From: Macrostomum lignano
Taxonomy: Eukaryota
NCBI GenBank assembly: GCA_002269645.1
Contig: NIVC01004435.1
Span: 1-27,741 of the forward strand
Direction of reading: 5' to 3'
Length of the DNA stretch: 27,741 nt
Position 1 is the stretch's first letter. Every line of letters begins with the position of its first letter. The translations under genes were made by a program, and so were the position numbers. The notes beneath the pieces are model-generated. The model had not been told where the DNA came from. It saw only the letters and a program-made list of their open reading frames with translations, and made no database searches. Shown piece after piece: positions 1 through 27,741 of this stretch.

Positions 1-41
1 GTTTTTGCGATTTTTGGCTAGCCCAACTTACTCTGGGTACT

Positions 42-1034
42 ATGAGTTTGCGTAGGATGACTGTAAATCAGCTACGTGAGAATTGAGATATAGGGGCCTG
101 AGCACGCACGGCTACAAGAAAGACCTGGTCAGCAGACTCTCCACTGCGATGAACCAGAGCGAAGCAGCTAGTCGGCGGGAACAAGCGGCGTCAAACTCCG
201 CGGAGACCGACAGCGAAGGTCGGCGGCAGCAGCAGCAACAACGGCTGGAGGCAGGGGAGGCGCTGGACCTAGTAGAGCTCCGGCGGAAGATAGCTAGCCT
301 GGAATCGGAGACGGCAGCAATGCACCAGCAGCTGGAAGGCCGATTTAGACCAGGTGAGGTGGACCAACAGCTTCTTAATGAGCCCTCTGATTGTAGTAGC
401 GACATGAATATCCCGAGTATGCTCAGAGGTCCCGGGTTCGAGACCAGGCTCGAGCCCTCAGTAGCTCAACTAGGGCTACGGGCGGCACCACTCGTCGTTG
501 CGGATTTCTGCGGTTGCGACTCTCGGACGGCGTCGGCGAGTCGTAGGGAAAAGGTGCTGCATCCAACCGCCAATCAGCCTAAAACCGAATCGCTGCAGGA
601 ATCGGTCAGTGGATAGTCGGCAACGCGCGCATCCTCGACGCCCTGATCTCTAGGGGACAGCTCGACCTGGAAGGCGTTCGGCAGTACTTGCAGTACAATG
701 TGCAGATCGGTGAGCTGGTCGAGGCAGGTTACGACACCACCAGGATCATGTGGTTCGACGACGCATTTAGAAGAGAGCAGCAGGCGGGCATGCAAGACTG
801 GGCGCGACCGAGTTTCTCGCTGGTGGCACGGCACCTCATCGCCCGCAGCAGATTCCACAACATGCCCGTTCTCGCATGGACAGGAAGATTCCGGTGATCC
901 AAGGAGCGCCCGTCTGCCTCAAGTTCAACACCCGTGGTGGCTGCAAGTTCCAGAATTGCAAGTACACTCATGCGTGCCGGGTCTGCTTGCGCTCGGACCA
1001 CGGCGAGACGCAACACGCGGCAAAAAACGAATAG
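42..1034 (+). pseudogene. Gag-like ORF1 of the YR retrotransposon, broken by three -1 frameshifts (near 80, 590 and 845)
   Basis: Joined translation: MSLRRMTVNQLRE/ELRYRGLSTHGYKKDLVSRL (SAP-like), a coiled coil, PLVVADF, IGQWIVGNARILDALI..YLQYNVQIGELVEAGYDTTRIMWFDDAFRREQQ..W, then CLKFNTRGGCKFQNCKYTHACRVCLRSDHGETQH, ending in TAG at 1032-1034. Confidence 0.8.
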
Positions 1035-2392
1035 CCGCGGCTCCAGTGGCCCCGGCAAGCTGGCAGCCGCAAATTTTAATCCCAAGTTTTTACTCCATTC
1101 GCGACATCAATTTCAATCCGAGTGGCTCCCTTGACGCAAATGCCTGGGCGAAGGAGCTGGGCGGCGACCCCGACGGGCCTTTTTTAATTGACGGAATGAT
1201 GCGCGGGTTCACCTGCGTTGGCTACCTCGACGACTTCGCGGTGGCCGGGAGCACCTACGAGGCCTGTGTCGAGGCTTACGAGAGCTTGAGGAGCCTGGCG
1301 ACGAGCCTCGGTTTCACCATCAACGAAAATAAGTCTAGCGGGCCGTCGCGGCGCACGGTTTTCCTGGGCGTCCTGATTGACACAGAGTCGGGGATGCTGA
1401 GCATCCCACCGGCCAAGCTCAGTGCACTCGAAGACGCACTTGGGAGCTGCTTGCATCGACGCGGTGCCATCAGCAAGCGCGACCTTCAGCGGATCTGCGG
1501 CAAGCTGTCCTGGGTGAGCAGCGTGACCAGGAAAGGCCGAGCTTCCATCCGCCCTCTACTGATGCTGGCGAGCCGGGCGACTAGACCTGGTGACAAGCTG
1601 CGGCTGATCCCGCACCTCACTGAGCTGCTGCACTGGTGGAGGAGAAGCCTTCAGTCCGTTGGCTGCGCGCCCATCTGGCCTCGCTACGCTCGAAGGATCG
1701 TCATCGAGACTGACGCCTGCAACTCGGGTGGTGCCTGCATTGTTCGGGAGGCCAATAAATCCGACTGGCTCTACATCAACTGGAAGAACGACGCTGGTGG
1801 CCGTTTTGCTTCGGCCCACATCAACGTTAAGGAGACCATCACGCCTGTCCTCAGCATCCTTGCGGCCCCGGGCCGCTTCGCCGGTGCGGACATCGTCGTG
1901 TACAGCGACAGCTCGGCGGCTGTCGGTGCGCTGAACAAGCTCAGCTCGCCATGTAACGACGTCAACCGGCTACTGCACACGCTGTCGCTTGCCTGCGACG
2001 CGTGGGGTCTGTGGCTGCGGGCCTTTCACGTTCCAGGCGCCTTCCAGGTCCTGGCGGATCCGGCCTCTCGCCTTGCTTCTAGAAGCGGGGCGCAGAATTT
2101 CTTTCTCCGCTTCTACCGTAGCCTGCATGATTTAGCTGCTGAATCCTGCTGCATCTCGCGCCACGCGCTCTGCCCTGCCTCCGCCTCCCTTTTGCTTTTG
2201 CAGGTCCGGCGCCTCCTGCCTCCCGCCTACCCGGGCCGCTCCTTCGCTTTCTCGCCGACGCCTGGGCTCCTAGTACGAGGCATCGTACGCTTCAAACCTC
2301 GAACAGTGGCAGCGCTACTGCAACCTCGAAGGTGTTCAGCCACTAGCGGCGTCCCCGGTGCACTTGGTCGAGTATGTGCGACGCCTGGCTAA
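1022..2392 (+). pseudogene. Reverse transcriptase-RNase H ORF; RT motifs upstream of YLDD are absent
   Basis: Part of track ORF 698..2392: YLDDF (1223-1237), TINENKS, FLGVLIDT, LQRICGKLSW. RNase H motifs IETDACNSGG, HINVKE, YSDSSAAV and HVPGAFQVLADPASR are present. No motif-A Asp or LPFG-type motif precedes YLDD. Confidence 0.88.
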
Positions 2393-3157
2393 GCGCGGCG
2401 TGGCACCCGGTAGCCTCGGTGGACACCTGGCGGCCATCAGCTGGAGCTTCAAGCTGGCGCAACTCCCCGACATCACCAAGTCCGGCCTGATCGATCTGGC
2501 AGTTAAGAGCTCCAAACGGACAAGCCGCCATTCAGTCAAGCAGAAAGACCCCATCACCCCGGCGGTTCTGCTTTCACTGGCAAACCAGGTGAACCCAAGA
2601 GACCCTGAAGACGCCGCCTTTTGGGCCGCCGTGCTCTGCTGCTTCTGGGCGCTTCTCAGGAAAGCAAATGTCTGCGGGCGCCACTCCATTCTCGTCGGCG
2701 ACACTCAGGCCGATAGTCAGTGCTGGAGACTCCGAATTCGACAATCGAAGGCCAACCAATGCGGACAAGACTACCAGGAGGCCGGAAGCCACCCACTTTG
2801 TCCTGTCCAAGCCCTGCGGCGGCATTTTCAGACTAACAAGCTGCGGTCTGGCCGGCGTTCACTCGGCTGTTTTGCGTCCACATCGCCGGAAGCTGGTGCC
2901 CGATGTCATCGCGTCAATTCGACCGCCGCCTCGCTCAGGCTCTGACAGATGCGGGTTGGGCGGCGACAGCTTTCTCAGGCCACTCTCTACGACGGGGTGG
3001 CGCCTGTCTGGCGTTCGACAGCGGCCTCGACGTGGAGCAGATCAAGCGGCTGGGCGGCTGGCGCAGCGGCGCCGTTTCACGCTACCTGCCGCAGTCGGGA
3101 GGTTGCCTCCGCCTCCTGCGCCCAATGGTCAACCGTGTGCTGTCGGCACCTCTCTAG
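2204..3157 (+). pseudogene. Tyrosine recombinase of the retrotransposon, with two -1 frameshifts (near 2280 and 2855)
   Basis: N-terminal ADAWAPSTR/SYASNLEQWQRYC. Catalytic residues: R (LLRKAN, 2658), K (SKANQ), LCPV, HSLRRGGA (2981), GGWRS and Y (SRYL, 3083). Spread over three frames, including track ORFs 2358..2945 and 2903..3157. Confidence 0.9.
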
Positions 3158-4053
3158 CGCTCGCCTGACTCGCCCCGTCGCCGTGTACCCTACTCCTTGA
3201 TCCCTTTGTTCGGGTTTTTTGGGATGTTTTGCTCGTGCTATCCAATTGTTGCCTTTGTTCTCTCCGTTCCGCTAATTTGTTTTCTGTCTTTGATTCGCAA
3301 TGCGAGTTCAGATGGGCAGCTAAGCTGAAGATGAGGATTAAATTAGTTACAGTGGACCGAATGACCAATCAGTGCCCTAATCGATCGATCAATCATTTGA
3401 ATCAGAATTCAAGTCTTTCATGTACGTTAGTGCTGACTCGGGCATCAATGCGACTTATCTAATGGACGAGCTAAGAATTCACCAGCTCAGAGGGCTGACT
3501 GCTCTGCATCAGCGCTATTGGAGAGTTTGTAGTGAAATTTGTGGCCAGAAGCCTGCATATAGGAGTCTTATGATTTACGGTAACAGAACATTCAACTGAC
3601 CTAGTCTAGTGCATGGTCAATGCGATCCAGTCCCAGCAGCGTCCCATTTATCGGATATAATGATGACCTCGAGATTGAAAGAAAAAAGACACTGGTTTGC
3701 AGGTTATATGTAGTTCAGGTTCCATTCTAGTCGGAAACCCGATTTTGCGAGAGCTGGTTTGGTGAGCCAGTGCGCACGGGTTGGTGGCGTCGGATTAGCT
3801 GATTTCTGTCTTTTTGCCCAGCTCGTCTCTTCGCTGTCCTCTCTTAGCTATAGGACCAGCTGCTTGCCGCACGTATGTATGCTACCTTGGGACCGACCAT
3901 CTGACAGGAGCTGGAGGCAGGAGCACTAAATGTGATTGATTTCTATGCTTTGAGGCCCGACAATTGCCTCGGATCAAAGGAATTAAGAAGACCAAACCCA
4001 TCAGAATCTTCAACTAAACTCGATTGAAAGCAACAGAAGGAATTAATTGTCTT

Positions 4054-4810
4054 CCTCATCACATCAGAGATCCCATTCCCTAACCCTCATCACATCAGAG
4101 ATCCCATTCCCTAACCCTCATCACATCAGAGATCCCATTCCCTAACCCTCATCACATCAGAGATCCCATTCCCTAACCCTCATCACATCAGAGATCCCAT
4201 TCCCTAACCCTCATCACATCAGAGATCCCATTCCCTAACCCTCATCACATCAGAGATCCCATTCCCTAACCCTCATCACATCAGAGATCCCATTCCCTAA
4301 CCCTCATCACATCAGAGATCCCATTCCCTAACCCTCATCACATCAGAGATCCCATTCCCTAACCCTCATCACATCAGAGATCCCATTCCCTAACCCTCAT
4401 CACATCAGAGATCCCATTCCCTAACCCTCATCACATCAGAGATCCCATTCCCTAACCCTCATCACATCAGAGATCCCATTCCCTAACCCTCATCACATCA
4501 GAGATCCCATTCCCTTAACCCTCATCACCTTAGAGATCCCATTCCCTGACCCTCACCACCTTTGAGATCCCATCCCTGATCCTCATCACCTCAGAGATCC
4601 ATCACTGATCCTCATCACCTCAGAGATCCATCCCTGATTCTCATCACCTCAGAAATCCATCCCTGATCCTCATCACCTCAGAAATCCATCCCAGATTCTC
4701 ATCACCTCAGAAATCCATCCCAGATCCTCATCACCTCAGAAATCCATCCCTGATCCTCATTACCTCAGAAATCCATCCCTGATCCTCCTTACCTCAGAAA
4801 TCCATCCAGA
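4054..4810. repeat. 31-bp minisatellite (CCTCATCACATCAGAGATCCCATTCCCTAAC)n
   Basis: 14 perfect copies at 4054-4487, then progressively diverged and shortened units to about 4810. Confidence 0.97.
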
Positions 4811-6870: not shown

Positions 6871-9800
6871 GTAAGTTACAGTATTGTGCTTTATTTACTC
6901 TTGCTTTATCAACTCCACACCCCTAAACAGCTTCTCTCCATCTCAACAGCGCTGGCGCCGCCGCTTCTTTGTCCTGTACCGCATCAGCGGCAGCGCGAAC
7001 GGCATCAACCACTGCCTGCTGTACTACAAAAACAAGCAGCTGGCCAAGGTCAAGGGCTCCATAGACCTGGGCAAGGCCAAGGACATTGTCACTCATGTGA
7101 TGCCGCCTGACAGTATCTTGTCAGACATCCCCAGCCGGCTCACGAGGCACTTCAACAAGGCTGCGGACAGTCAGCTGCCATTCTTCCAGCTGGACACCAA
7201 GCACAAGTCGCACGACCGGACCTACTTCTTCCTGCCCGACAGCGTCTCCCAGATGGAGAACTGGGCGCGCAGCATCAGCCTGGCCTGCGGATTGGCCGAG
7301 GAGGTCGAGTCCAATGATGAGCAGGCCATGCGGCCGCAGCAGACCCAGCAGTTTCCTGTCGGCATCACGCTGATCCAACAGAGTTAGTTACGTTTAATAA
7401 TTCTCTTCATCAGTTTAACAGGTCTTTTATCAGCCCTAGGCTTGCCGATATGTTGGAAATCATCTTCAAAACAGGCATTTCCAAAGTGAGTGCCTGTCTG
7501 CGGCGCCAAAGTGAGTGCCTGTCTGCGGCGCCAAAGTGAGTGCTTGTCTGCGGCGCCAAAGTGAGTGCCTGTCTGCGGCGCCAAAGTGAGTGCCTGTCTG
7601 CGGCGCCAAAGTGAGTGCTTGTCTGCGGCGCCAAAGTGAGTGCCTGTCTGCGGCGCCAAAGTGAGTGCCTGTCTGCGGCGCCAAAGTGAGTGCTTGTCTG
7701 CGGCGCCAAAGTGAGTGCCTGTCTGCGGCGCCAAAGTGAGTGCCTGTCTGCGGCGCCAAAGTGAGTGCTTGTCTGCGGCGCCAAAGTGAGTGCCTGTCTG
7801 CGGCGCCAAAGTGAGTGCCTGTCTGCGGCGCCAAAGTGAGTGCTTGTCTGCGGCGCCAAAGTGAGTGCCTGTCTGCGGCGCCAAAGTGAGTGCCTGTCTG
7901 CGGCGCCAAAGTGAGTGCTTGTCTGCGGCGCCAAAGTGAGTGCCTGCGGCGCCAAAGTGAGTGCCTGTCTGTGGCGCCAAAGTGAGTGCCTGCGGCGCCA
8001 AAGTGAGTGCCTGTCTACGGCGCCAAAGTGAGTGCCTGTCTGCGGCGCCAAAGTGAGTGTCTGTCTGTGGCGCCAAAGTGAGTGCCTGTCTGCGGCGCCA
8101 AAGTGAGTGCCTGTCTGCGGCGCCAAAGTGAGTGCCTGTCTGTGGCGCCAAAGTGAGTGCCTGTCTGTGGCGCCAAAGTGAGTGCCTGTCTGCGGCGCCA
8201 AAATGAGTGCTTGTCTGTGGCGCCAAAGTGAGTGCTTGTCTGTGGCGCCAAAATGAGTGCTTGTCTGTGGCGCCAAAGTGAGTGCTTGTCTGCGGCGCCA
8301 AAATGAGTGCTTGTCTGTGGCGCCAAAGTGAGTGCTTGTCTGTGGCGCCAAAATGAGTGCTTGTCTGTGGCGCCAAAATGAGTGCCTGTCTGCGGCGCCA
8401 AAGTGAGTGCTTGTCTGCGGCGCCAAAGTGAGTGCCTGTCTTTGACGCCAAAGTGAATGTCTGTCTGCGGCGCTAAAATGAGTGCTAATAGCACCGATTC
8501 CCAAAATAATTTAGGAATTGTAAGATTCTTGGCTTCGTCCCCCACCACCATAAAATATGTGGCAAAAGCCTGGGCATTTCACTATATTGAGGCTAATCTG
8601 TCGCCGATATGTAGAGTGCTCACAATAATCGCCACTCATCCCCAGCCGGCCTGCTCAGCACCCAGCCAATGCTGCAGCGACCGCCGCCGCCACCGCCGCC
8701 GCGGTTGCAGCCGGCCGCGGTCGATGACGCGGACAGCGAGGCCTACAAATTGCCCGCCGAGCTGCAAGCAGATTTGGTTGCCGAGGGCGTCTACGGCGTG
8801 CCGGCCGAGGACCCCTCGGTCTACCGGGTGCCGTCTCCGGTGCCGGAGCTCGCCGCGGCCCGCGCCGATGACGTGTACGGCACGCCGCCGCCCATCTCGG
8901 CGGAGCAGCAGCAGCAGCTGCTTGAGCAGCAGGCCGAATCGTCTCCCACACCGCCGCCCAGGAAAAATGCCCTCAAGCAGCCCAGGGTGCCTCCGCCCGA
9001 ATCTGGTAAGGGCCTTGCGCTGCAGTGCCTTGTTACTGACGAGCTCCATATTCCTGCCAGGGAGTCCAATCCCACACACTGATCCCACACACTGATCCCA
9101 CACAATGATCCCACACAATGATCCCCCACCCCGATCCTTAGCTCAATCCCACACTCTGATCCCGCACTCTCATCTTGCACCGGGATCTAGCATCATGACC
9201 TCACACCCTGAATCCCGTACCTTGATCCCACGATCCCAATTCGAATTCCCACCCTTGCAATACTTTTCCCAGATTATGAACCGAAGGGTTCCGCTCCTTA
9301 GCTCCTTAACATGGTACATGGAATGAGCTGGTCCCATGAAACTTTCTCAGGCTAAACTGAAAAAGCCAATCTGTACTAATATTTATGCTTTCGTCATGTT
9401 TAGGTTTATACCGTATTCCAAACCTGTGCCAGGCATCAATTACCTGCTTATGCTGCTCTTGATAACAGCCCTCCGCTTGGAACATCGAAACCGCCACAGG
9501 CCTCAATTACAGCCTGATTATATTTAACTGATTTTACGAGCGTAGATTATTAGATCCCGATCCCAGATCCCGATCCCAGATCCCCCAGATCCCCCAGATC
9601 CCGATCCCAGATCCCGATCCCAGATCCCGATCCCAGATCCCGATCCCAGATCCCGATCCCAGATCCCGATCCCAGATCCCGATCCCAGATCCCGATCCCA
9701 GATCCCGATCCCAGATCCCGATCCCAGATCCCGATCCCAGATCCCGATCCCAGATCCCGATCCCAGATCCCGATCCCAGATCCCGATCCCAGATCCCGAT

Positions 9801-12800
9801 CCCAGATCCCGATCCCAGATCCCGATCCCAGATCCCGATCCCAGATCCCGATCCCAGATCCCGATCCCAGATCCCGATCCCAGATCCCGATCCCAGATCC
9901 CGATCCCAGATCCCGATCCCAGATCCCGATCCCAGATCCCGATCCCAGATCCCGATCCCAGATCCCGATCCCAGATCCCGATCCCAGATCCCGATCCCAG
10001 ATCCCGATCCCAGATCCCGATCCCAGATCCCGATCCCAGATCCCGATCCCAGATCCCGATCCCAGATCCCGATCCCAGATCCCGATCCCAGATCCCGATC
10101 CCAGATCCCGATCCCAGATCCCGATCCCAGATCCCGATCCCAGATCCCGATCCCAGATCCCGATCCCAGATCCCGATCCCAGATCCCGATCCCAGATCCC
10201 GATCCCAGATCCCGATCCCAGATCCCGATCCCAGATCCCGATCCCAGATCCCGATCCCAGATCCCGATCCCAGATCCCGATCCCAGATCCCGATCCCAGA
10301 TCCCGATCCCAGATCCCGATCCCAGATCCCGATCCCAGATCCCGATCCCAGATCCCGATCCCAGATCCCGATCCCAGATCCCGATCCCAGATCCCGATCC
10401 CAGATCCCGATCCCAGATCCCGATCCCAGATCCCGATCCCAGATCCCGATCCCAGATCCCGATCCCAGATCCCGATCCCAGATCCCGATCCCAGATCCCG
10501 ATCCCAGATCCCGATCCCAGATCCCGATCCCAGATCCCGATCCCAGATCCCGATCCCAGATCCCGATCCCAGATCCCGATCCCAGATCCCGATCCCAGAT
10601 CCCGATCCCAGATCCCGATCCCAGATCCCGATCCCAGATCCCGATCCCAGATCCCGATCCCAGATCCCGATCCCAGATCCCGATCCCAGATCCCGATCCC
10701 AGATCCCGATCCCAGATCCCGATCCCAGATCCCGATCCCAGATCCCGATCCCAGATCCCGATCCCAGATCCCGATCCCAGATCCCGATCCCAGATCCCGA
10801 TCCCAGATCCCGATCCCAGATCCCGATCCCAGATCCCGATCCCAGATCCCGATCCCAGATCCCGATCCCAGATCCCGATCCCAGATCCCGATCCCAGATC
10901 CCGATCCCAGATCCCGATCCCAGATCCCGATCCCAGATCCCGATCCCAGATCCCGATCCCAGATCCCGATCCCAGATCCCGATCCCAGATCCCGATCCCA
11001 GATCCCGATCCCAGATCCCGATCCCAGATCCCGATCCCAGATCCCGATCCCAGATCCCGATCCCAGATCCCGATCCCAGATCCCGATCCCAGATCCCGAT
11101 CCCAGATCCCGATCCCAGATCCCGATCCCAGATCCCGATCCCAGATCCCGATCCCAGATCCCGATCCCAGATCCCGATCCCAGATCCCGATCCCAGATCC
11201 CGATCCCAGATCCCGATCCCAGATCCCGATCCCAGATCCCGATCCCAGATCCCGATCCCAGATCCCGATCCCAGATCCCGATCCCAGATCCCGATCCCAG
11301 ATCCCGATCCCAGATCCCGATCCCAGATCCCGATCCCAGATCCCGATCCCAGATCCCGATCCCAGATCCCGATCCCAGATCCCGATCCCAGATCCCGATC
11401 CCAGATCCCGATCCCAGATCCCGATCCCAGATCCCGATCCCAGATCCCGATCCCAGATCCCGATCCCAGATCCCGATCCCAGATCCCGATCCCAGATCCC
11501 GATCCCAGATCCCGATCCCAGATCCCGATCCCAGATCCCGATCCCAGATCCCGATCCCAGATCCCGATCCCAGATCCCGATCCCAGATCCCGATCCCAGA
11601 TCCCGATCCCAGATCCCGATCCCAGATCCCGATCCCAGATCCCGATCCCAGATCCCGATCCCAGATCCCGATCCCAGATCCCGATCCCAGATCCCGATCC
11701 CAGATCCCGATCCCAGATCCCGATCCCAGATCCCGATCCCAGATCCCGATCCCAGATCCTGATCCCAGATCCCGATCCCAGATCCCGATCCCAGATCCCG
11801 ATCCCAGATCCCGTATTTGCAACCGGCACTGTTACCATCATGTCGATTTGCAATGCTGCTCAAAATTTGTCCAAAATCCGCAGCAGCGCCCGTGCCGACG
11901 CTGGATGCCACCGACAGCGGCGTAGGGCAGCGCGATACGGCTGTGTCAGAGGTGCGCCGCTCCACTATGTCGCGCATCTTCACGCAGCGCCGTTCCGCGG
12001 TCCCCGCCGCTCCCGCTGCTGCCGCCGCCGTCGCTGCCAACGACGAGTTTCTGGCGCCGATGCCACTGCCTCGCCGACTTCGCGCCGGCACCAACGCCAG
12101 CAGCGAGGACGACCTCACCGAGTCGGATTCTGACTCGGCCGATTCGGACTCTGCGGAGGACAGCGGCTCGCTCGGCAGCGACTTGGGGGTGAGTACCGGC
12201 TGGGGCTGTCACTCAGTTAGTCCGACCTTCCCTGATCTCAAATCCTAGATCCCATGGATCTCTAATCCCAGGTTCTAGGTCTGGTAGATCTGTAATCTTA
12301 GACCCAAGATTCCACAGTTCCTAGATCAGAAATGTCTAAAATCCCAAATCCTAAGTCCTACGATCTCCCATACCATATCCTAGATCCCAGACCCTAGATC
12401 CCATACCATAGATCCCAGACCCTAGATCCCATACCATAGATCACATATCCTAGATCCCATATCCTAGATCCCGTTCCATAGATCACACATCCTTGATCCC
12501 ATACCCTAGATCCCATACCCTAGATCCCATACCATAGATCACATATCCTAGATCCCATATAATAAAATCCTGGTCTCAGCTCCCATACCATTAGGACGGC
12601 CGTTCATGCAGACGGCTGGGAAACTGCTGAGTGCCAGTCTGCAGTCACTCGCTCCTTCGCAGGAAAAAATTATCAGCTGATTTCTGGCTGCACATTTTAA
12701 CTGGCCGGTCCTTATCAACGCAACGGGTCTTCGCCTTATCGCACTTTAGCAATTTGTGCTTAATTAATGCAGCATTAATTGCACCTACTAAACTGGGACA

Positions 12801-14486: not shown

Positions 14487-14700
14487 TTGACAGACTGTTA
14501 ATTGGGGTCCCCACTTCTTCGATTTGCAGCCTGCAGAGAACCTAAACGGGGGCTTTTTGGGTCAAGATAATTTTTTTTGACAGACAATAAGCTTCATCAA
14601 CTTTGCTAGCTCGAATCATCACAAGCTCAAGTTTTTAGATTTGTCCACATCTTGCGGTCTGCGCAGAAGTAGGAATTTTTTATAATGTCAAGTTTATGTT

Positions 14701-15031
14701 GCTGTTAGTTTGAGATGCTGTGAGTTTGAGATGCTGTGAGTTTGTGATGCTGTGAGTTTGAGATGCTGTGAGTTTGAGATGCTGTGAGCTTGTGATGCTG
14801 TGAGTTTGAGATGCTGTGAGTTTGAGATGCTGTGAATTTGAGATGTTGCGAGTTTGAGGTGGTTTGAGTTTGTGATGCTGTGAGTTTGAGATGATTTGAG
14901 TTTGAGATGCTGTGAGTTTGAGATGCTGTGAGTTTGAGATGATTTGAGTTTGAGATGCTGTGAGTTTGAGATGCTGTGAGTTTGTGATGATTTGAGTTTG
15001 AGATGTTGCGAGTTTGAGGTGGTTTGAGTTT
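14701..15031. repeat. 16-bp minisatellite (GATGCTGTGAGTTTGW)n, first array
   Basis: Tandem units directly visible. Confidence 0.95.
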
Positions 15032-16241
15032 GCTAAAAGTCAAAATCGAAGGCTGGGTCGGCCATCTCGAATGGGTCGCTGCAGTTGTGCTCAGCAAAAT
15101 TGAGGACATCTGCGTGGAGTTTTATGTGCCTGCTAGCTCTGCTGGTGTCAATGTTGTGGAAGTGACTCAGGTCTGCTTTCCCAGTAATTTCCTCTATCAC
15201 TAATTATTTTCAATTTTTAAACAAGTTGTGTAAAGTGAAGTGCAGAAATCTTCGTTATTTTTTATCCATTGATTTAATCGGACCGTTTTGTGTTTGTCTG
15301 TCTGCTTGTTCGCCAATGAGAATCTTCGTTCAATCTCCCATGAGAACTGCTAATCCCCGTACCAATAATATTCTTGGTTCAACTGATGCACTTACAGTGT
15401 GTGATCTTATGCGGATGGCAATTATATATTTATTGAAGCTCAGATGGTGCACAGCACTCCACCCTGTGCTGCCTTGTAATTTTCCTAGTTACATGCGGGC
15501 TTGTGCTTCCGCTGCCACTTTTAGTAGCATCATGCGTTCGTGTTTGCTAAAACTTCTACCGTTAAATTTTTCTCGTGACTATCGATAAATCCAGAACTCA
15601 CAGATTGGTGCTACAGTTATAAAATGTGCAGTTTTTGCTAATTTTGCTTGTTTCTACTTTCAATAGTGCCCAACGCTTTTTGAATCTTGTCTTCCGCTAG
15701 AAGTACTAATCTGCTTTTTCTGCTTTTCAGGCTCGATCAATCGAAGTTTTTAAATACATAGAATTGCAGGCAGTAGACCTGTCTCTGAATGATTTGATGC
15801 TCTCGGGGCAAAACCACTTTTAATGTGCTGATTTACCTGGGCAGGTAGAATTAATTGAATTTATGGGATTTTGGGTGTTTTAATTGCAAACAGGAAAAAC
15901 TTCGGGATGTTTGGCAGGCTTCCGCCTTCCGTTTCTTCCCTGTCTCCCTGCCTGCTTCAATATCCCCATCGTCCGACTCTTTTGCCAGAATATCCCTCAT
16001 TTCCCCGCCCGCTGAGCAGCAGAAACTGAAATTCGAGCTCGCAGAGCAGCTTGAGGAAGCACAGCTGCTCATCAATGCTCGCCTTGCAGACTCTGTCTCA
16101 TCTCACCCATCTCACCCTATTTCCACCCCGTCTAATCTCGTCTGATTTAATCTCATCCCTTTCAATCCGATTGCATCCATGCAGTTCTCCATTCTTACGT
16201 GGGACGGAGCTGCTCAGCTCGGTGGCAAATGTTTCTGACTC

Positions 16242-16418: not shown

Positions 16419-16597
16419 ATCCCACCCCATTTTATATCACCCTATCTCATCCCACCCCATCTCATCCCACCCCATCTCATCCCACCCCATCTCATCCCAC
16501 CCCATCTCATCCCACCCCATCTCATCCCACCCCATCTCATCCCACCCCATCTCATCCCACCCCATTTCATCCCACCCCATCTCATCCCACCCCATCT
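16418..16597. repeat. 15-bp minisatellite (CTCATCCCACCCCAT)n, about 12 units
   Basis: Tandem units; source of the IPPHL ORF artefact. Confidence 0.95.
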
Positions 16598-17228
16598 TTC
16601 CGAGCTTAGCCGAGGTCCCAGACTGCCTTGCGTTGCGATTTCATCCCAATGCAGTTTTCTCTTCCGTTTGCAAAAGCCGTCTGCTTCTCCTCCTCTTCCT
16701 TGTCACTCCGGACTTTCTGCTTCTGCAACAATCGGCAGCGCCCGCGCCTGCTAAAGCAAACTTGCGAAACGGGGGCTGAAACAAGCCCTAACCGGCCGCT
16801 CTCCCTAACCTCCCACTCAGTACACTGCTGCAAGCATTCCCGGCTGTCACAGCCTCATTTCCCATCTCCCTCTCCTCCCCTCAAACCGCCCCCTCCCCAA
16901 ATTTTATTATCGATCGGTTTCAGCAGCGCGAAACAATGGGGGGAGCGCAGTGCCGATGCTGAGCTCCCGACCTTGCGCGCGCGTAGCAGTTCTGTGAGGC
17001 CGTGTGGGACAGAGCGGGGGTCTCCTATGGGAGGCTTAGCGAAGACAGACGGAGAGGCGGCGTGTCAGACAGACAGTGAGTGTCAAGAGAGACTGAGAGG
17101 CACAGGCTGACGGCACCGGCCTTCTCATTGCGGCCGTCTCAGTGCTGGATGGGGAATTCTGCATGCATGCAGCTGGTAGGAAAAGCGAGTCACTTTGCAC
17201 TCTGCCCTGAAGGCATCCACCGACGTTT

Positions 17229-17643
17229 TGCGCCCTTTGCACAGTTCTTGGCGCCCCTTGCACGGTTCTTGGAGCTCCTTGCACGGTTCTTGGCGCCCCT
17301 TGCACGGTTCTTGGAGCTCCTTGCACGGTTCTTGGCGCCCCTTGCACGGTTCTTGGAGCTCCTTGCACGGTTCTTGGAGCTCCTTGCACGGTTCTTGGAG
17401 CTCCTTGCACGGTTCTTGGAGCTCCTTGCACGGTTCTTGGAGCTCCTTGCACGGTTCTTGGAGCTCCTTGCACGGTTCTTGGAGCTCCTTGCACGGTTCT
17501 TGGCGCCCCTTGCACGGTTCTTGGCACCCCTTGCACAGTTCTTGGCGCGGCGCTCTTTGCATGGTTCTTGGCGCCCCTTGCAGGGTTCTTGGCGCCCCTT
17601 GCATAGTTCTTGGCGCCCCTTGCACAGTTTTTAGCGCCCCTTG
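17229..17643. repeat. 21-bp minisatellite (CTTGCACGGTTCTTGGMGCYC)n, about 19 units
   Basis: Two unit variants, ending GAGCTC or GCGCCC. Confidence 0.96.
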
Positions 17644-22862: not shown

Positions 22863-23567
22863 TCAGGTCAACGAACGAAGCTTGCAGGCTGCGCAGCTCC
22901 GCAGTCGGGGAGTCGCAGAGTCCTCCGGGGCGTCGCCCTCGTCCTCCTCAGATGACAGGCTCTGGCGGGTGCGCTTGGGGCGCGGGCGGGCCGGCTGCTT
23001 CCGCTTGCGGGACGGCGTCGGCGGCTGCTGCGGCTGCGGCTCCGGCGGCTCATCGAGGTCCTGGATGGACAGCTCCACGGAGGACAGCACGATGGCGTCT
23101 GCGCTGGCACTCAGCGCATCGTCCTCGTTGTTGTCGTTGACGCTTTTGACTTCCTCCTCGACTTCACTAACGACGTCAACCGGGCAGTAGCCGAAAGCAG
23201 ACTGCGGCTCTGCTAGAGGCAGCTCGGGCTCTTCTGCAACTTGCGACTGCGGCTGTTGGGGCAGTCGGGTTGGTGCACCGCCGCAGTATCCGGTGGGTGG
23301 CTGCATCTGCGGTCGGGCCTCGAGGAACTCCAGGGCTCGTTCGTGCAGAATGCCAGCCCTCGCTTTGCCCATCGCGCTGGCAATAAGCAGGGTTCGGCGT
23401 AGGTCGCCCTGCTGCTTGCGCCGCCGCTGCCCAGTTGAAGTTGTCGTTGAAAGCTTTTCGATAGACCACTGAAGAATTTTGCCGTAGGCCGGACGCTCCT
23501 CTTCAGTGTCCGCTGCCGGGTCGTCAATAAAATGCGAATGTTGCTGCTGTATGCTGCTGCTGTACAT
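22863..23567 (-). CDS. Intronless 234-aa protein with a SERTA/IER-type N-terminal motif and a basic NLS
   Basis: True ATG at 23567; GC-rich ORF in AT-rich flanks; motif KILQWSIEKL...DLRRTLLIASAMGKAR; acidic middle region; RKRKQPARPRPKRTR. Confidence 0.75.
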   Translation of the reverse strand: MYSSSIQQQHSHFIDDPAADTEEERPAYGKILQWSIEKLSTTTSTGQRRRKQQGDLRRTLLIASAMGKARAGILHERALEFLEARPQMQPPTGYCGGAPTRLPQQPQSQVAEEPELPLAEPQSAFGYCPVDVVSEVEEEVKSVNDNNEDDALSASADAIVLSSVELSIQDLDEPPEPQPQQPPTPSRKRKQPARPRPKRTRQSLSSEEDEGDAPEDSATPRLRSCAACKLRSLT

Positions 23568-23784
23568 TGCTGCTGACGACTGAGAAATTTACACATGCGA
23601 TGCCGATGAATTTGTACAGGAATTGAAGCTTGAATGAAAGTTGAAGCCGTCTTTTTGCTGTTTTTTTTGTTTTTTTACAAATGACCGGGCGTTAAGCCCT
23701 GGGTTTCGCTTCGCCCGCTGAACGCGCTGGCTTAATGTGTGGGGTTGGGCTTGAGAGAAAGTCCGAAGTCGTTAAGCCTTATCT

Positions 23785-23910: not shown

Positions 23911-25398
23911 CTTCTATGTTTTTCCCACCACAGACTGCTGCTGTTAGGCTTGAGTGGGCCAAGGGGGTATGGAGTCTTCGATTTTCTAGCCCGCACGCCC
24001 CACCCCTCTCCTTGCGGCCGGGGTCCAATGTACATTCACTGCGTACACTTTATTACATATCGGAGGGTAGGATTTCCTCGCTCAGAACTGGCAGACGGGC
24101 ATAAACTGGGGCATAGAAAACTTCAGCCTTCTAAGCCCGGCCCTCAGCCATCTAAGCAAAACTAGCTCTCGCTTTGGTGTACATTTCACTCAGTAGGAAA
24201 GACGACCGCTCTAGCAACTCGCTACACAAAGGCAGGCAACAAACATTCACAGCCTTTTCTATTAAGAGACCCACCCATATGTGCGTCATTATGAGCCTTC
24301 GGTTTGAGTCTAATTTGTGGACTAGAGAGCCTGCATCAGGACAAATGATGATGATTCTGGCTGGTTGGAATGAGTCGCGTCGATACCAGTATTCAAATCC
24401 CTTCACTTCTTCCCAGCCCATCAGTGCCATCACTAATTAAGCATTCCAGTATAGTATCTCATTCCTATTCTAGCCAAGCAGAGAAGAGACCAGAACTACC
24501 TCTCTCTCTCTCTTAGGTTGCTAGTGCCTCCGATTCTGATGGAAAATCGATTAATCACCGGCACCGCTTGATAAATTTCGAATTCTCGCTGTTCTGCCTG
24601 TCCGACAGCCTTTTTCTAGCACTTCGGCTTTTGTTACGAGTAGATAAGAATTATCGCTCAGGGCTTCGGCTTTGAGATCTCAGCGACCACATCCGATCCA
24701 TTCGAGCAACCAGGCAAGCAACTCGGGGAAACCTGACCGAACACCCCATCCAAGTTCTAAGAAAATCTTGTTTCTAAGAAACCGTTCGACACGCAAGTCA
24801 CTTTTTCATATTCACAAAAGACAAAACCTTTCTGACAACCCCAGATGGCATTTCTGGAAATAATCATGAAATCATTACTAGAATGGAGACCAGAAACTTC
24901 TTCAGCCAGCGCTTCCGCAATGAGTTGGCAAGTCAAGCTTGCAGTGACACTACTACACGGTCCCCAATTCACTGAGGACAAATTTCTTGAAATCCACAAC
25001 CCACAAGCAGTTGCGAGACCATGACGAAAGCTTAGAATGCATTATTTTTAGAATAAGCAACAACTGCAAGCAGATCGGGTTGGCTTAACGTACAGAACTT
25101 GTTATTGCTTTTGCACAGCTCAGCATAATATGAACTGCAAACTCGGTACTTGATATCGCTGACTGCGCACTTGTCTGCTTTCCATTCTGCAGAGCTTACT
25201 GTGTGGAGCTGTCTAGTGAGAAAACAAGTGCTGCTCCAGGCCAACTACTCACTCATTTATCTATAAATGCAAATGATTCTTCATCACTTGGGTGGGGTTG
25301 TTTTCACAGCCCCAAATTCCAGTCAAGTCGCATGAGGGGAGCCTTCAGGCTACTTGAAGAGATTTTCTTACCAGCGAAATTCTAAAATAAATATTTAC

Positions 25399-26100
25399 TG
25401 TGAAGATTCGGGATTGTGAAGATTGGGGATTGTGAAAATTGGGGATTGTGAAGATTGGGGATTGTGAAGATTGGGTATTGTGAAAATTGGGGATTGTGAA
25501 AATTGGGGATTGTGAAGATTGGGGATTGTGAAAATTGGGGATTGTGAAAATTGGGGATTGTGAAAATTGGGGATTGTGAAAATTGGGGATTGTGAAAATT
25601 CGGGATTGTGAAAATTGGGATTGTGAAGATTGGGGATTGTGAAAATTGGGGATTGTGAAAATTGGGGATTGTGAAAATTGGGGATTGTGAAAATTGGGGA
25701 TTGTGAAAATTCGGGATTGTGAAAATTGGGGATTGTGAAAATTGGGGATTGTGAAAATTGGGGATTGTGAAAATTGGGGATTGTGAAAATTGGGGATTGT
25801 GAAAATTGGGGATTGTGAAAATTGGGGATTGTGAAAATTGGGGACTGTGAAAATTGGGGATTGTGAAGATTGGGGATTGTGAAGATTGGGGATTGTGAAG
25901 ATTGGGGATTGTGAAGATTGGGGATTGTGAAGATTGGGGATTGAGAAGATTGGGGATTGTAAAGATTGGGGATTGTGAAGATTCGGATTGTGAAGATTGG
26001 GGATTGTGAAAATTGAGGATTGTGAAGATTGGGGATTGTGAAAATTGGGGATTGTGAAGATTGGGGATTGTAAAAATTGGGGATTGTGAAGATTGGGGGA
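25399..26100. repeat. 16-bp minisatellite (GGGGATTGTGAARATT)n, about 44 units
   Basis: Tandem units directly visible; source of track ORF 25395..26135. Confidence 0.97.
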
Positions 26101-27741
26101 AATATCGTGCGCGGTTCGAATATTCGGATCCCCAATTTAGTGCTGATGAGGATCGTTAATTTTTATAAACAAGAAGCAAAGAAACTCTGGGTCAGCTGAC
26201 CTGAAGGCCATGGGGGCAGTTCAGTGGCTGTCTGGTGTGTAATTTCTATTTTTAGCGCACCCAGCAGCCCGTCCAGTTAGCAGTCACCCTTGCAATGGAA
26301 AATTCCACTGTCTATAACATTCGCAACGCACAGCAGATTTCTTCGCCAACCTTCACATGTCAGGCATCAATCCGCTGGACCCAGATCGCCTTTTCAAATC
26401 CATCTGCATAACTCTTACTGTTTCAATCTATAAAAATTACCTGGGAGCGATATTAAATTGGAAGGCGCTATTTTTGCTTTTGCTTTGACCTTGCTGTCAA
26501 ATTAAAATTCTACTTGGCGTCTTGGCCTGACTAAGCTGGTATGAGCGTATGACTGCTAGAACTTAGAAGCATTGTATTAGAAGGCACCTAAACGCAGAGC
26601 CGCTCTCTCGCAGACCAAATTAGCCTGGCTAAGTAGAAGTAGAAGTTAGGTCTGTTTTTCGGGGCGCGGCTCCGCCAGTTCGAACCCTGGACAACTTGTA
26701 CATAGCCTGGGCCTTTAACCAGCGTGTCAATGCCTGACCAGATGAAAGTGTACAGCGCCTAATTAGTACACGTCGAAAAGTTTTGATAACAAAATAGCTG
26801 AAAGTTCTATTTTGATTGCTTTTCCTGCACGGCAAGAGTTTCAGTATTTGCAGGTGCTTTGCATTCTGTGCTTGTACGACTCGTAGAACTCGTGCAGATT
26901 AGTTTGCCTGCACCCCAGCAAAGTAAACATTTTTATATCTGCAGTTCATTGTCAATGCGCGATCACTTTCTAAAGGTTACTTCAACGAGCCGCAGAAGCA
27001 CCTTCCACTACTGTCTACTTGAACAGCTTTATGAATCGTTATTAATCTTGTATAGCAGCATGACTGCTTCAAAGACTTCCAACGGTAAACGCCCCATCAA
27101 TTTTTGAACATGCTAGAGGCTAGAGCACATTGGATAGGCCGACTCAACTCTGCGGGATAAGAAAGTCCCAGTGAGTCATATCGCAACTGCTGAAAATAGA
27201 AGAGAACACAGACAAGCTCAACCCCGCGACTGGGTCTTTGTTCGCAGATCGCAGTTATCACAGAGAAAAGAAATTCGATTGTTATGCAATCCCGCAGGAT
27301 TTTGGCACCATTTCAGCGACCCGGCGATGGGTTATAGGGCGTATAGGGGAGTTGAAACTCAATGCCAATGGCAACAAAGACAGGCCACAACCGAGAGCAG
27401 CACAAAGACCTTAGTCCCTGCTTCTCCTATGCCCTGGCCGTGGCAATCTTTGTTTGAATGAAGTGGCCCATGCACGCGATGCGACCCCCGTTAGCCTGTG
27501 AGTCATCCTTAGGGCCCAGCACGTAACCCGGCCCATTCGAGCGGCTGTCCCACCAGGGACATGTGACTGATCCTACTGCTTAATAACGATTCTCTCCGGT
27601 CGATGACTCAGCCTCAGCTTTAATTCTTTCTTAATCAATTGTCAGTCAAGACTTTTTATACATTGCTAGACAGTGCGCAGTATACGCTGCAGAGGAATGA
27701 AAACTGAAGGCCAGTGATGGAGGCAATGGCGTGGGGACCAC

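Follow-up and report, generated by a model that had tools for sequence, protein, structure and literature searches.

A candidate -1 frameshift site at the gag-pol junction of Ngaro-type retrotransposons in Macrostomum lignano

In MMTV, HTLV-1 and EIAV, ribosomes shift by -1 at an A_AAA_AAC heptamer at gag-pro/pol, and in gammaretroviruses gag-pol is made by readthrough of a UAG stop codon; UGA followed by C is a leaky stop context. A_AAA_AAC is listed among the most shift-prone heptamers on mammalian ribosomes, and of 51 animal LTR retrotransposons in a 2003 survey, 28 had pol in -1 behind a classical heptamer (both in the first part of PMC5009743, which summarises the survey). Over its first 300,000 of 449,034 characters the same text mentions neither DIRS, Ngaro nor tyrosine recombinase. 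The Ngaro plan was taken, as a set of family traits, from portions of PMC3266345, PMC9210276 and PMC7192593. Programmed frameshifting has been supposed for the overlap between the reverse transcriptase/RNase H (RT/RH) and tyrosine recombinase (YR) frames of Ngaro elements (Poulter and Butler, 2015, as quoted in a portion of PMC13003380). The literature searched, in excerpts, named no gag-pol slippery site, readthrough variant or spliced gag-YR message for Ngaro; the founding paper and the 2015 review may contain them.

The DNA analysed here, called the window throughout, is a 27,741-nt stretch of Macrostomum lignano (GCA_002269645.1, contig NIVC01004435.1, positions 1 to 27,741, forward strand). 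The element at its start shares with the retroviral shift sites of MMTV, HTLV-1 and EIAV the heptamer, its phase, the spacing to a 3' structure and a putative Gag:Pol purpose, and with animal LTR retrotransposons a pol frame in -1 behind a classical heptamer. It differs from retroviruses in having no protease, DDE integrase or LTRs; in addition, no pseudoknot was found, the stop codon in these elements usually abuts the heptamer, and 3' structure was absent in a third of the representative families. With Ngaro-like YR retrotransposons (order DIRS) it shares the order of its ORFs, split direct repeats and the absence of a methyltransferase match. The parts of the element in the window were as follows.

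1..3265, + strand: degenerate copy of a Ngaro-type YR retrotransposon (blastn against 20 other copies; split direct repeats seen in the full copy L026)
42..1034, + strand: gag-like ORF1 with SAP domain, coiled coil and C-terminal Cys/His knuckle (Pfam SAP, E 2.7e-7 in L026)
915..986, + strand: Cys/His zinc-knuckle-like motif at the gag C-terminus, a landmark in most families examined
1022..2392, + strand: pol (RT/RNase H) in the -1 frame, with YLDD at 1223-1234
2204..3157, + strand: tyrosine recombinase ORF (PF00589, E 2e-5)

By element layout and repeats, the features on which the assignment rests (the quick RT tree contains no named Ngaro elements), window 1-3265 is a Ngaro-type YR retrotransposon rather than a retrovirus or LTR element. 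It was one of 21 matches in the source genome (G000). In full copies, gag-like ORF1, RT/RH and YR lay in that order on the same strand. Self-comparison of L026 gave split direct repeats arranged A1..B1-A2..B2 (A, 192 nt, 98% identity; B, 62 nt, 100%), and the same arrangement was seen in L215, an element discussed below. Only direct repeats were detected in L026, with no inverted terminal repeats or internal complementary region, unlike a DIRS1-like element. No Pfam match to an adenine methyltransferase was obtained behind RT/RH in any of seven pol frames scanned, unlike DIRS1 and PAT. An RNase H domain was matched (PF17917, up to E 2e-5) in four of six sister-family pol proteins and not in the pol of the window family, and searching PDB sequences with the RNase H portion returned nothing (best E 0.26).

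The window copy is dead. It starts with the contig, where repeat A1 is ending, and stops within repeat B1. Its gag, which in intact copies is 330 aa long from Met, is frame-broken near 78, 595 and 841, and its YR frame is also broken. The open -1 frame spans 647-2392 and matches RVT_1 (E 4.7e-5). Because gag is broken upstream and RT has lost approximately 524 nt at 1195/1201, the shift signal cannot serve this copy. The deletion joint was also present in two public runs, and a 99.9% identical copy of the element was located on another contig. Gag and pol were both intact in 3 of the 20 other copies.

The remainder of the window held host exon-like frames at 6875-7387 and 8457-9095, the former with a PH domain (E 1.6e-9) and the latter proline-rich with YxxP motifs, which we take to resemble a Gab/Dos-type adaptor. 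Further GC-rich exon-like frames were found at 11763-12248 and, on the minus strand, at 22863-23588, where the string 'LRRTLLI' is, in our view, reminiscent of SERTA-domain proteins. Tandem-repeat arrays occupied 4055-4810, 7480-8490, 9560-11790, 14680-15120, 16420-16600, 17220-17630 and 25390-26130, with units of 31, 25, 13 nt and others, the 31-nt unit containing CCCTAA.

The gag-pol junction was read as three adjoining features.

1022..1028, + strand: slippery heptamer A_AAA_AAC, in phase with the frame 771-1034, kept in the other copies and in divergent families
1032..1034, + strand: gag stop TAG, separated from the heptamer by one codon (GAA); in the other -1 families the stop adjoins the heptamer
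1037..1070, + strand: hairpin predicted to be stimulatory, separated from the heptamer by an 8-nt spacer (RNA fold)

Positions 1020-1034 read GCA AAA AAC GAA TAG. The first-pass annotation had placed an A-AAA-AAC heptamer at 1022-1028 before the gag stop, with which both sequence and codon phase agree, and had held that a -1 shift enters the RT frame; the -1 frame indeed reads KKRIAAAPV and then runs into RT (RVT_1). The hairpin that it described behind an 8-nt spacer was recovered in full by RNA folding (stems 1037-1042/1065-1070 and 1043-1046/1060-1063, bulge at 1064), and the folding check it had called for returned this hairpin as the minimum-energy structure (-21.6 kcal/mol, 90% of the ensemble; z -2.0, with 9 of 200 shuffles equally good). 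Canonical heptamers numbered 138 over the two strands of the window, and the one at 1022-1028 alone was followed at 5-9 nt by a hairpin of -18 kcal/mol or lower. No Rfam family came near threshold over 900-1300 (best E 4.6). An H-type pseudoknot between the hairpin loop and 1071-1135 was rejected, with at most 4 bp available. A TTTTAAY-like motif with pyrimidine-rich flanks was noted at 1073-1080; by eye it recurred in most families at 20-110 nt past the gag stop, in differing reading frames.

Within the family, the heptamer was unchanged in 20/20 other copies; since these are 84-100% identical over the junction, the agreement is weak evidence. Conservation of heptamer and stem across family copies had been suggested as a check, and it came out differently for the two: the heptamer was kept, and the stem showed no compensatory double change among the 20 copies. 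Four stem changes kept a G-U pair and two broke a pair, two copies lacked 17 nt and one lacked a single base; covariation was compared within these close copies, the hairpins of other families not being alignable. In intact copies pol was open for 614 codons in -1 from the heptamer. Its first AUG in the intact copies (L024-L026) lay 229 codons behind the heptamer and within the RT domain, which starts at residue 118, so that pol should be unable to start on its own there. Several other families had AUGs near the start of pol.

Divergent families were collected by a protein search with 152 matches (150 listed), from which 60 loci were picked by hand to cover the groups, with long frames favoured; their RT was 36-59% identical to that of the window family. 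AAAAAAC/T followed at once by a stop codon was found in 48/60 picked loci, an in-frame UGA in 3/60 and neither in 9/60, and those of the nine that could be read were broken or mutated at the site. The gag end NNA AAA AAC stop, with pol in -1, was present in 12 other families, and AAT replaced AAC in one more. As a control, A_AAA_AAC occurred at 0 of 3,724 other in-phase gag positions. AAA was the minority lysine codon in gag (37/157), and the residues preceding K-N varied between families. The families of this genome form one clade (quick tree, SH-aLRT 99) and are therefore not independent. Among 29 loci on metagenome contigs, seven carried A_AAA_AAC in -1 geometry just before RT and an eighth carried A_AAA_AAG; six others had gag and pol in frame with one stop, two were unrelated RTs, and the rest were cut, broken or unclear. 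Taken together, the codon control, the minority use of AAA, the divergent families and the metagenome loci point to conservation of the heptamer beyond protein constraint. A degenerate lineage (L111, L120) had a longer A run at the site.

Fifteen representatives were folded 3' of the heptamer. Six gave z <= -2 (45- or 70-nt folding window), four were ambiguous and five (F4, F8, F10, F11, F15) had next to no 3' structure. The stems of the six significant hairpins began 4-9 nt behind the heptamer and were unrelated in sequence, with an outer GCGGC/GCCGC common to the window family and a sister family. A second fold was observed just 5' of the heptamer (approximately window 972-1020): in 40-nt folding windows at offsets of -50 and -40, z was below -1.5 in 7 and 8 of the 15 representatives, respectively. 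This fold is a possible upstream attenuator or stimulator.

Because the pol of intact copies has no AUG for so long a distance, programmed -1 frameshifting is, judged from sequence, very probably the route from gag to RT/RNase H in intact copies of the family. The frameshift reading of the first-pass annotation is thus upheld by heptamer conservation and the AUG-less pol; what did not hold was the hairpin as a universal part, nearly absent as it was in 5/15 representatives. Under this model, tRNA-Lys on AAA and tRNA-Asn on AAC would slip in tandem while the ribosome is paused at the hairpin 8 nt downstream. The fraction of ribosomes shifted to -1 would make a Gag-RT/RNase H fusion, and unshifted ribosomes would stop one codon later and release Gag, giving a high Gag:Pol ratio. 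The window family, in which a single codon parts the heptamer from the stop and the hairpin starts 8 nt downstream, looks like the classical case of tandem slippage. Where the hairpin is absent, the pause may come from the stop codon itself, which could take the place of the hairpin because it adjoins the heptamer in the other families.

Slippage may instead occur mainly at a slowly decoded stop ('shifty stop'), the hairpin being dispensable or incidental. The position of the stop directly behind the heptamer in every other -1 family whose junction was displayed is in keeping with such a mechanism, as are the five representatives without 3' structure and the stem without covariation; we consider it unlikely all the same, given that a GAA codon separates heptamer from stop in the window family, that its hairpin stands at the classical spacing and that unrelated hairpins recur at 4-9 nt in six representatives. 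More distant readings dispense with ribosomal slippage. Pol might have its own start (internal or non-AUG initiation, or reinitiation after the gag stop) or be translated from a spliced message, and the heptamer might be kept for a Lys-Asn C-terminus, as an RNA signal or the like. The AUGs near the pol start of some families would suit an own start, and the 229 codons without one in the window family speak against it. Splicing probably does occur elsewhere in these elements; before RT, however, the best acceptor-like sites were weak and varied in place and phase between families, a search for a conserved acceptor there found none, and contigs of three runs (RNA by guess) spanned the junction unspliced. 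The TTTTAAY-like motif behind the junction (by eye) would fit a heptamer retained for another reason, whereas a mere need for Lys-Asn would not account for the use of AAA AAC, preceded by an A, in place of the commoner lysine codon AAG, nor for the complete loss of K-N in the clade with gag and pol in frame. Altogether we regard a separately started or spliced pol as improbable. Least credible, to the point of being nearly dismissible, is transcriptional slippage in which the six-A run gains a base and the pol frame is opened in the RNA. The homopolymer run is conserved, and longer in the degenerate lineage, as such slippage would have it; against this, the run is only six bases long and fixed in phase relative to the gag codons, and no indel was listed at the run in the contigs of the runs, the last being a weak point since contigs drop rare variants.

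One clade likely replaced the shift by in-frame readthrough at UGA-CUG, a reading drawn from the leaky UGA-C context. Gag and pol there were in the same frame and joined by CAY TGA CTG in 18 of 24 loci fetched with the junction of one family (16 analysed with one query, the remainder with another); the other six had no readable junction. The in-frame loci fell into four groups, down to approximately 52% RT identity, and were nested among the -1 families as sister to one of them (SH-aLRT 99, quick tree). Some members had AUGs near the pol start. The arrangement resembles gammaretroviral gag-pol stop readthrough in having gag and pol in frame with an intervening stop, and differs in the use of UGA rather than UAG and in that no strong 3' structure was noted. 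In-frame junctions, candidates for readthrough, were recorded at the following loci.

L110, L132-L143, L145-L147, L150-L152: in-frame gag/pol with UGA-CUG (source genome)
L160, L162, L163, L171, L173, L180: in-frame gag/pol with UAG-G, UAG-U or UGA-CAG (metagenome)

In the window family, the first AUG of the YR frame comes only deep within the domain. A second slippery site at the pol/YR overlap was considered and set aside: inspection by eye showed no conserved heptamer, the frame of YR against that of pol varied in one family and among metagenome loci, and a conserved acceptor was found instead. The splice sites predicted in the window were as follows.

351..359, + strand: predicted 5' splice donor CAG|GTGAGG of the gag-YR message, exon end 353, phase 1; the homologous site is used in L215 and P0049 (other families)
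2186..2205, + strand: predicted 3' splice acceptor, a pyrimidine tract and a CAG with its last base at 2203; phase 1 relative to the YR frame

The predicted intron spans 354-2203 in the window and 1879-4246 in L026. In the 14 families displayed, a phase-1 pyrimidine tract and CAG preceded the YR domain by approximately 15-20 codons (by eye). Of 15 metagenome loci that include the start of YR, 12 had their top acceptor-like site in phase 1 (two of the loci are duplicates). A strong phase-1 donor lay 630-780 nt before the gag stop in 12/14 families; over 500 synonymous-codon shuffles the count averaged 2.0 and never exceeded 6. For this comparison the 630-780-nt range was picked after the data had been seen, the weight table was an ad hoc one and a family whose gag is broken was excluded. 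A SAP N-terminus and YR are fused in UniRef100_A0A1I8J2F9 (P0049, labelled Macrostomum lignano), taken here as a sequence model, and the joint falls exactly at AAG|GTGAGC and CAG|GT of L216. L215 (G000:C3137) is a complete element of a sister family, both repeat pairs 100% identical, that lacks exactly the predicted 2,410-nt GT..AG intron and has a single open SAP-YR frame.

The conserved, phase-matched sites, the one precisely intron-less genomic copy and the matching UniRef model make it likely that YR is produced by splicing the SAP/coiled-coil N-terminus of gag onto it. YR would then be reached through a spliced RNA in which the first 105-135 gag codons (SAP and coiled coil) are joined to YR, and not through a second slip. 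L215 would look like a retro-copy of such an RNA; a deletion at the shared CAGGT is a conceivable alternative origin of the missing intron. One of 92 matches spanned the joint, so that no second intron-less copy was seen, nor was there one among the window-family loci examined. No gag-YR splice joint was found in contigs of four runs (RNA by guess) aligned to L026, a comparison in which contigs can show presence only. The sequence flanking L215 was also present just upstream of another family copy (L100, 19-142), possibly as a shared target repeat. In several families (L090, L098, L083, L072 and L077) the open pol frame, 850-1050 codons long, extended across most of the YR region with no further Pfam domain, and in two families the stretch from the shift site to RT contained long low-complexity repeats.

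A -1 frameshift between gag and pol is textbook for retroelements, and the signal alone is unsurprising. What the analysis adds is an exact candidate shift site for Ngaro elements, whose translation was only supposed in print, together with the hairpin-less and candidate readthrough variants and the putative spliced SAP-YR message. The families form a natural series, one heptamer occurring with a hairpin, without one and with a stop directly adjoining, on which the contribution of the stop codon to -1 slippage could be examined, and the sister families with an in-frame UGA permit a direct comparison of two recoding modes. As a rule for animal Ngaro elements we lean, with moderate confidence, towards Gag-Pol made by -1 shifting at A_AAA_AAC-stop, repeatedly exchanged for readthrough, and YR translated from a spliced message that fuses it to the SAP/coiled-coil part of Gag. 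The integrating enzyme would then carry Gag's DNA-binding N-terminus with it, which may influence the choice of target. If true, splicing would take the place of the second frameshift into YR guessed at in print, and the recombinase would be a SAP-YR fusion. Such a fusion would fit the link between ORF1 and integration preference reported for Cafeteria Ngaros (in a portion of PMC8547959).
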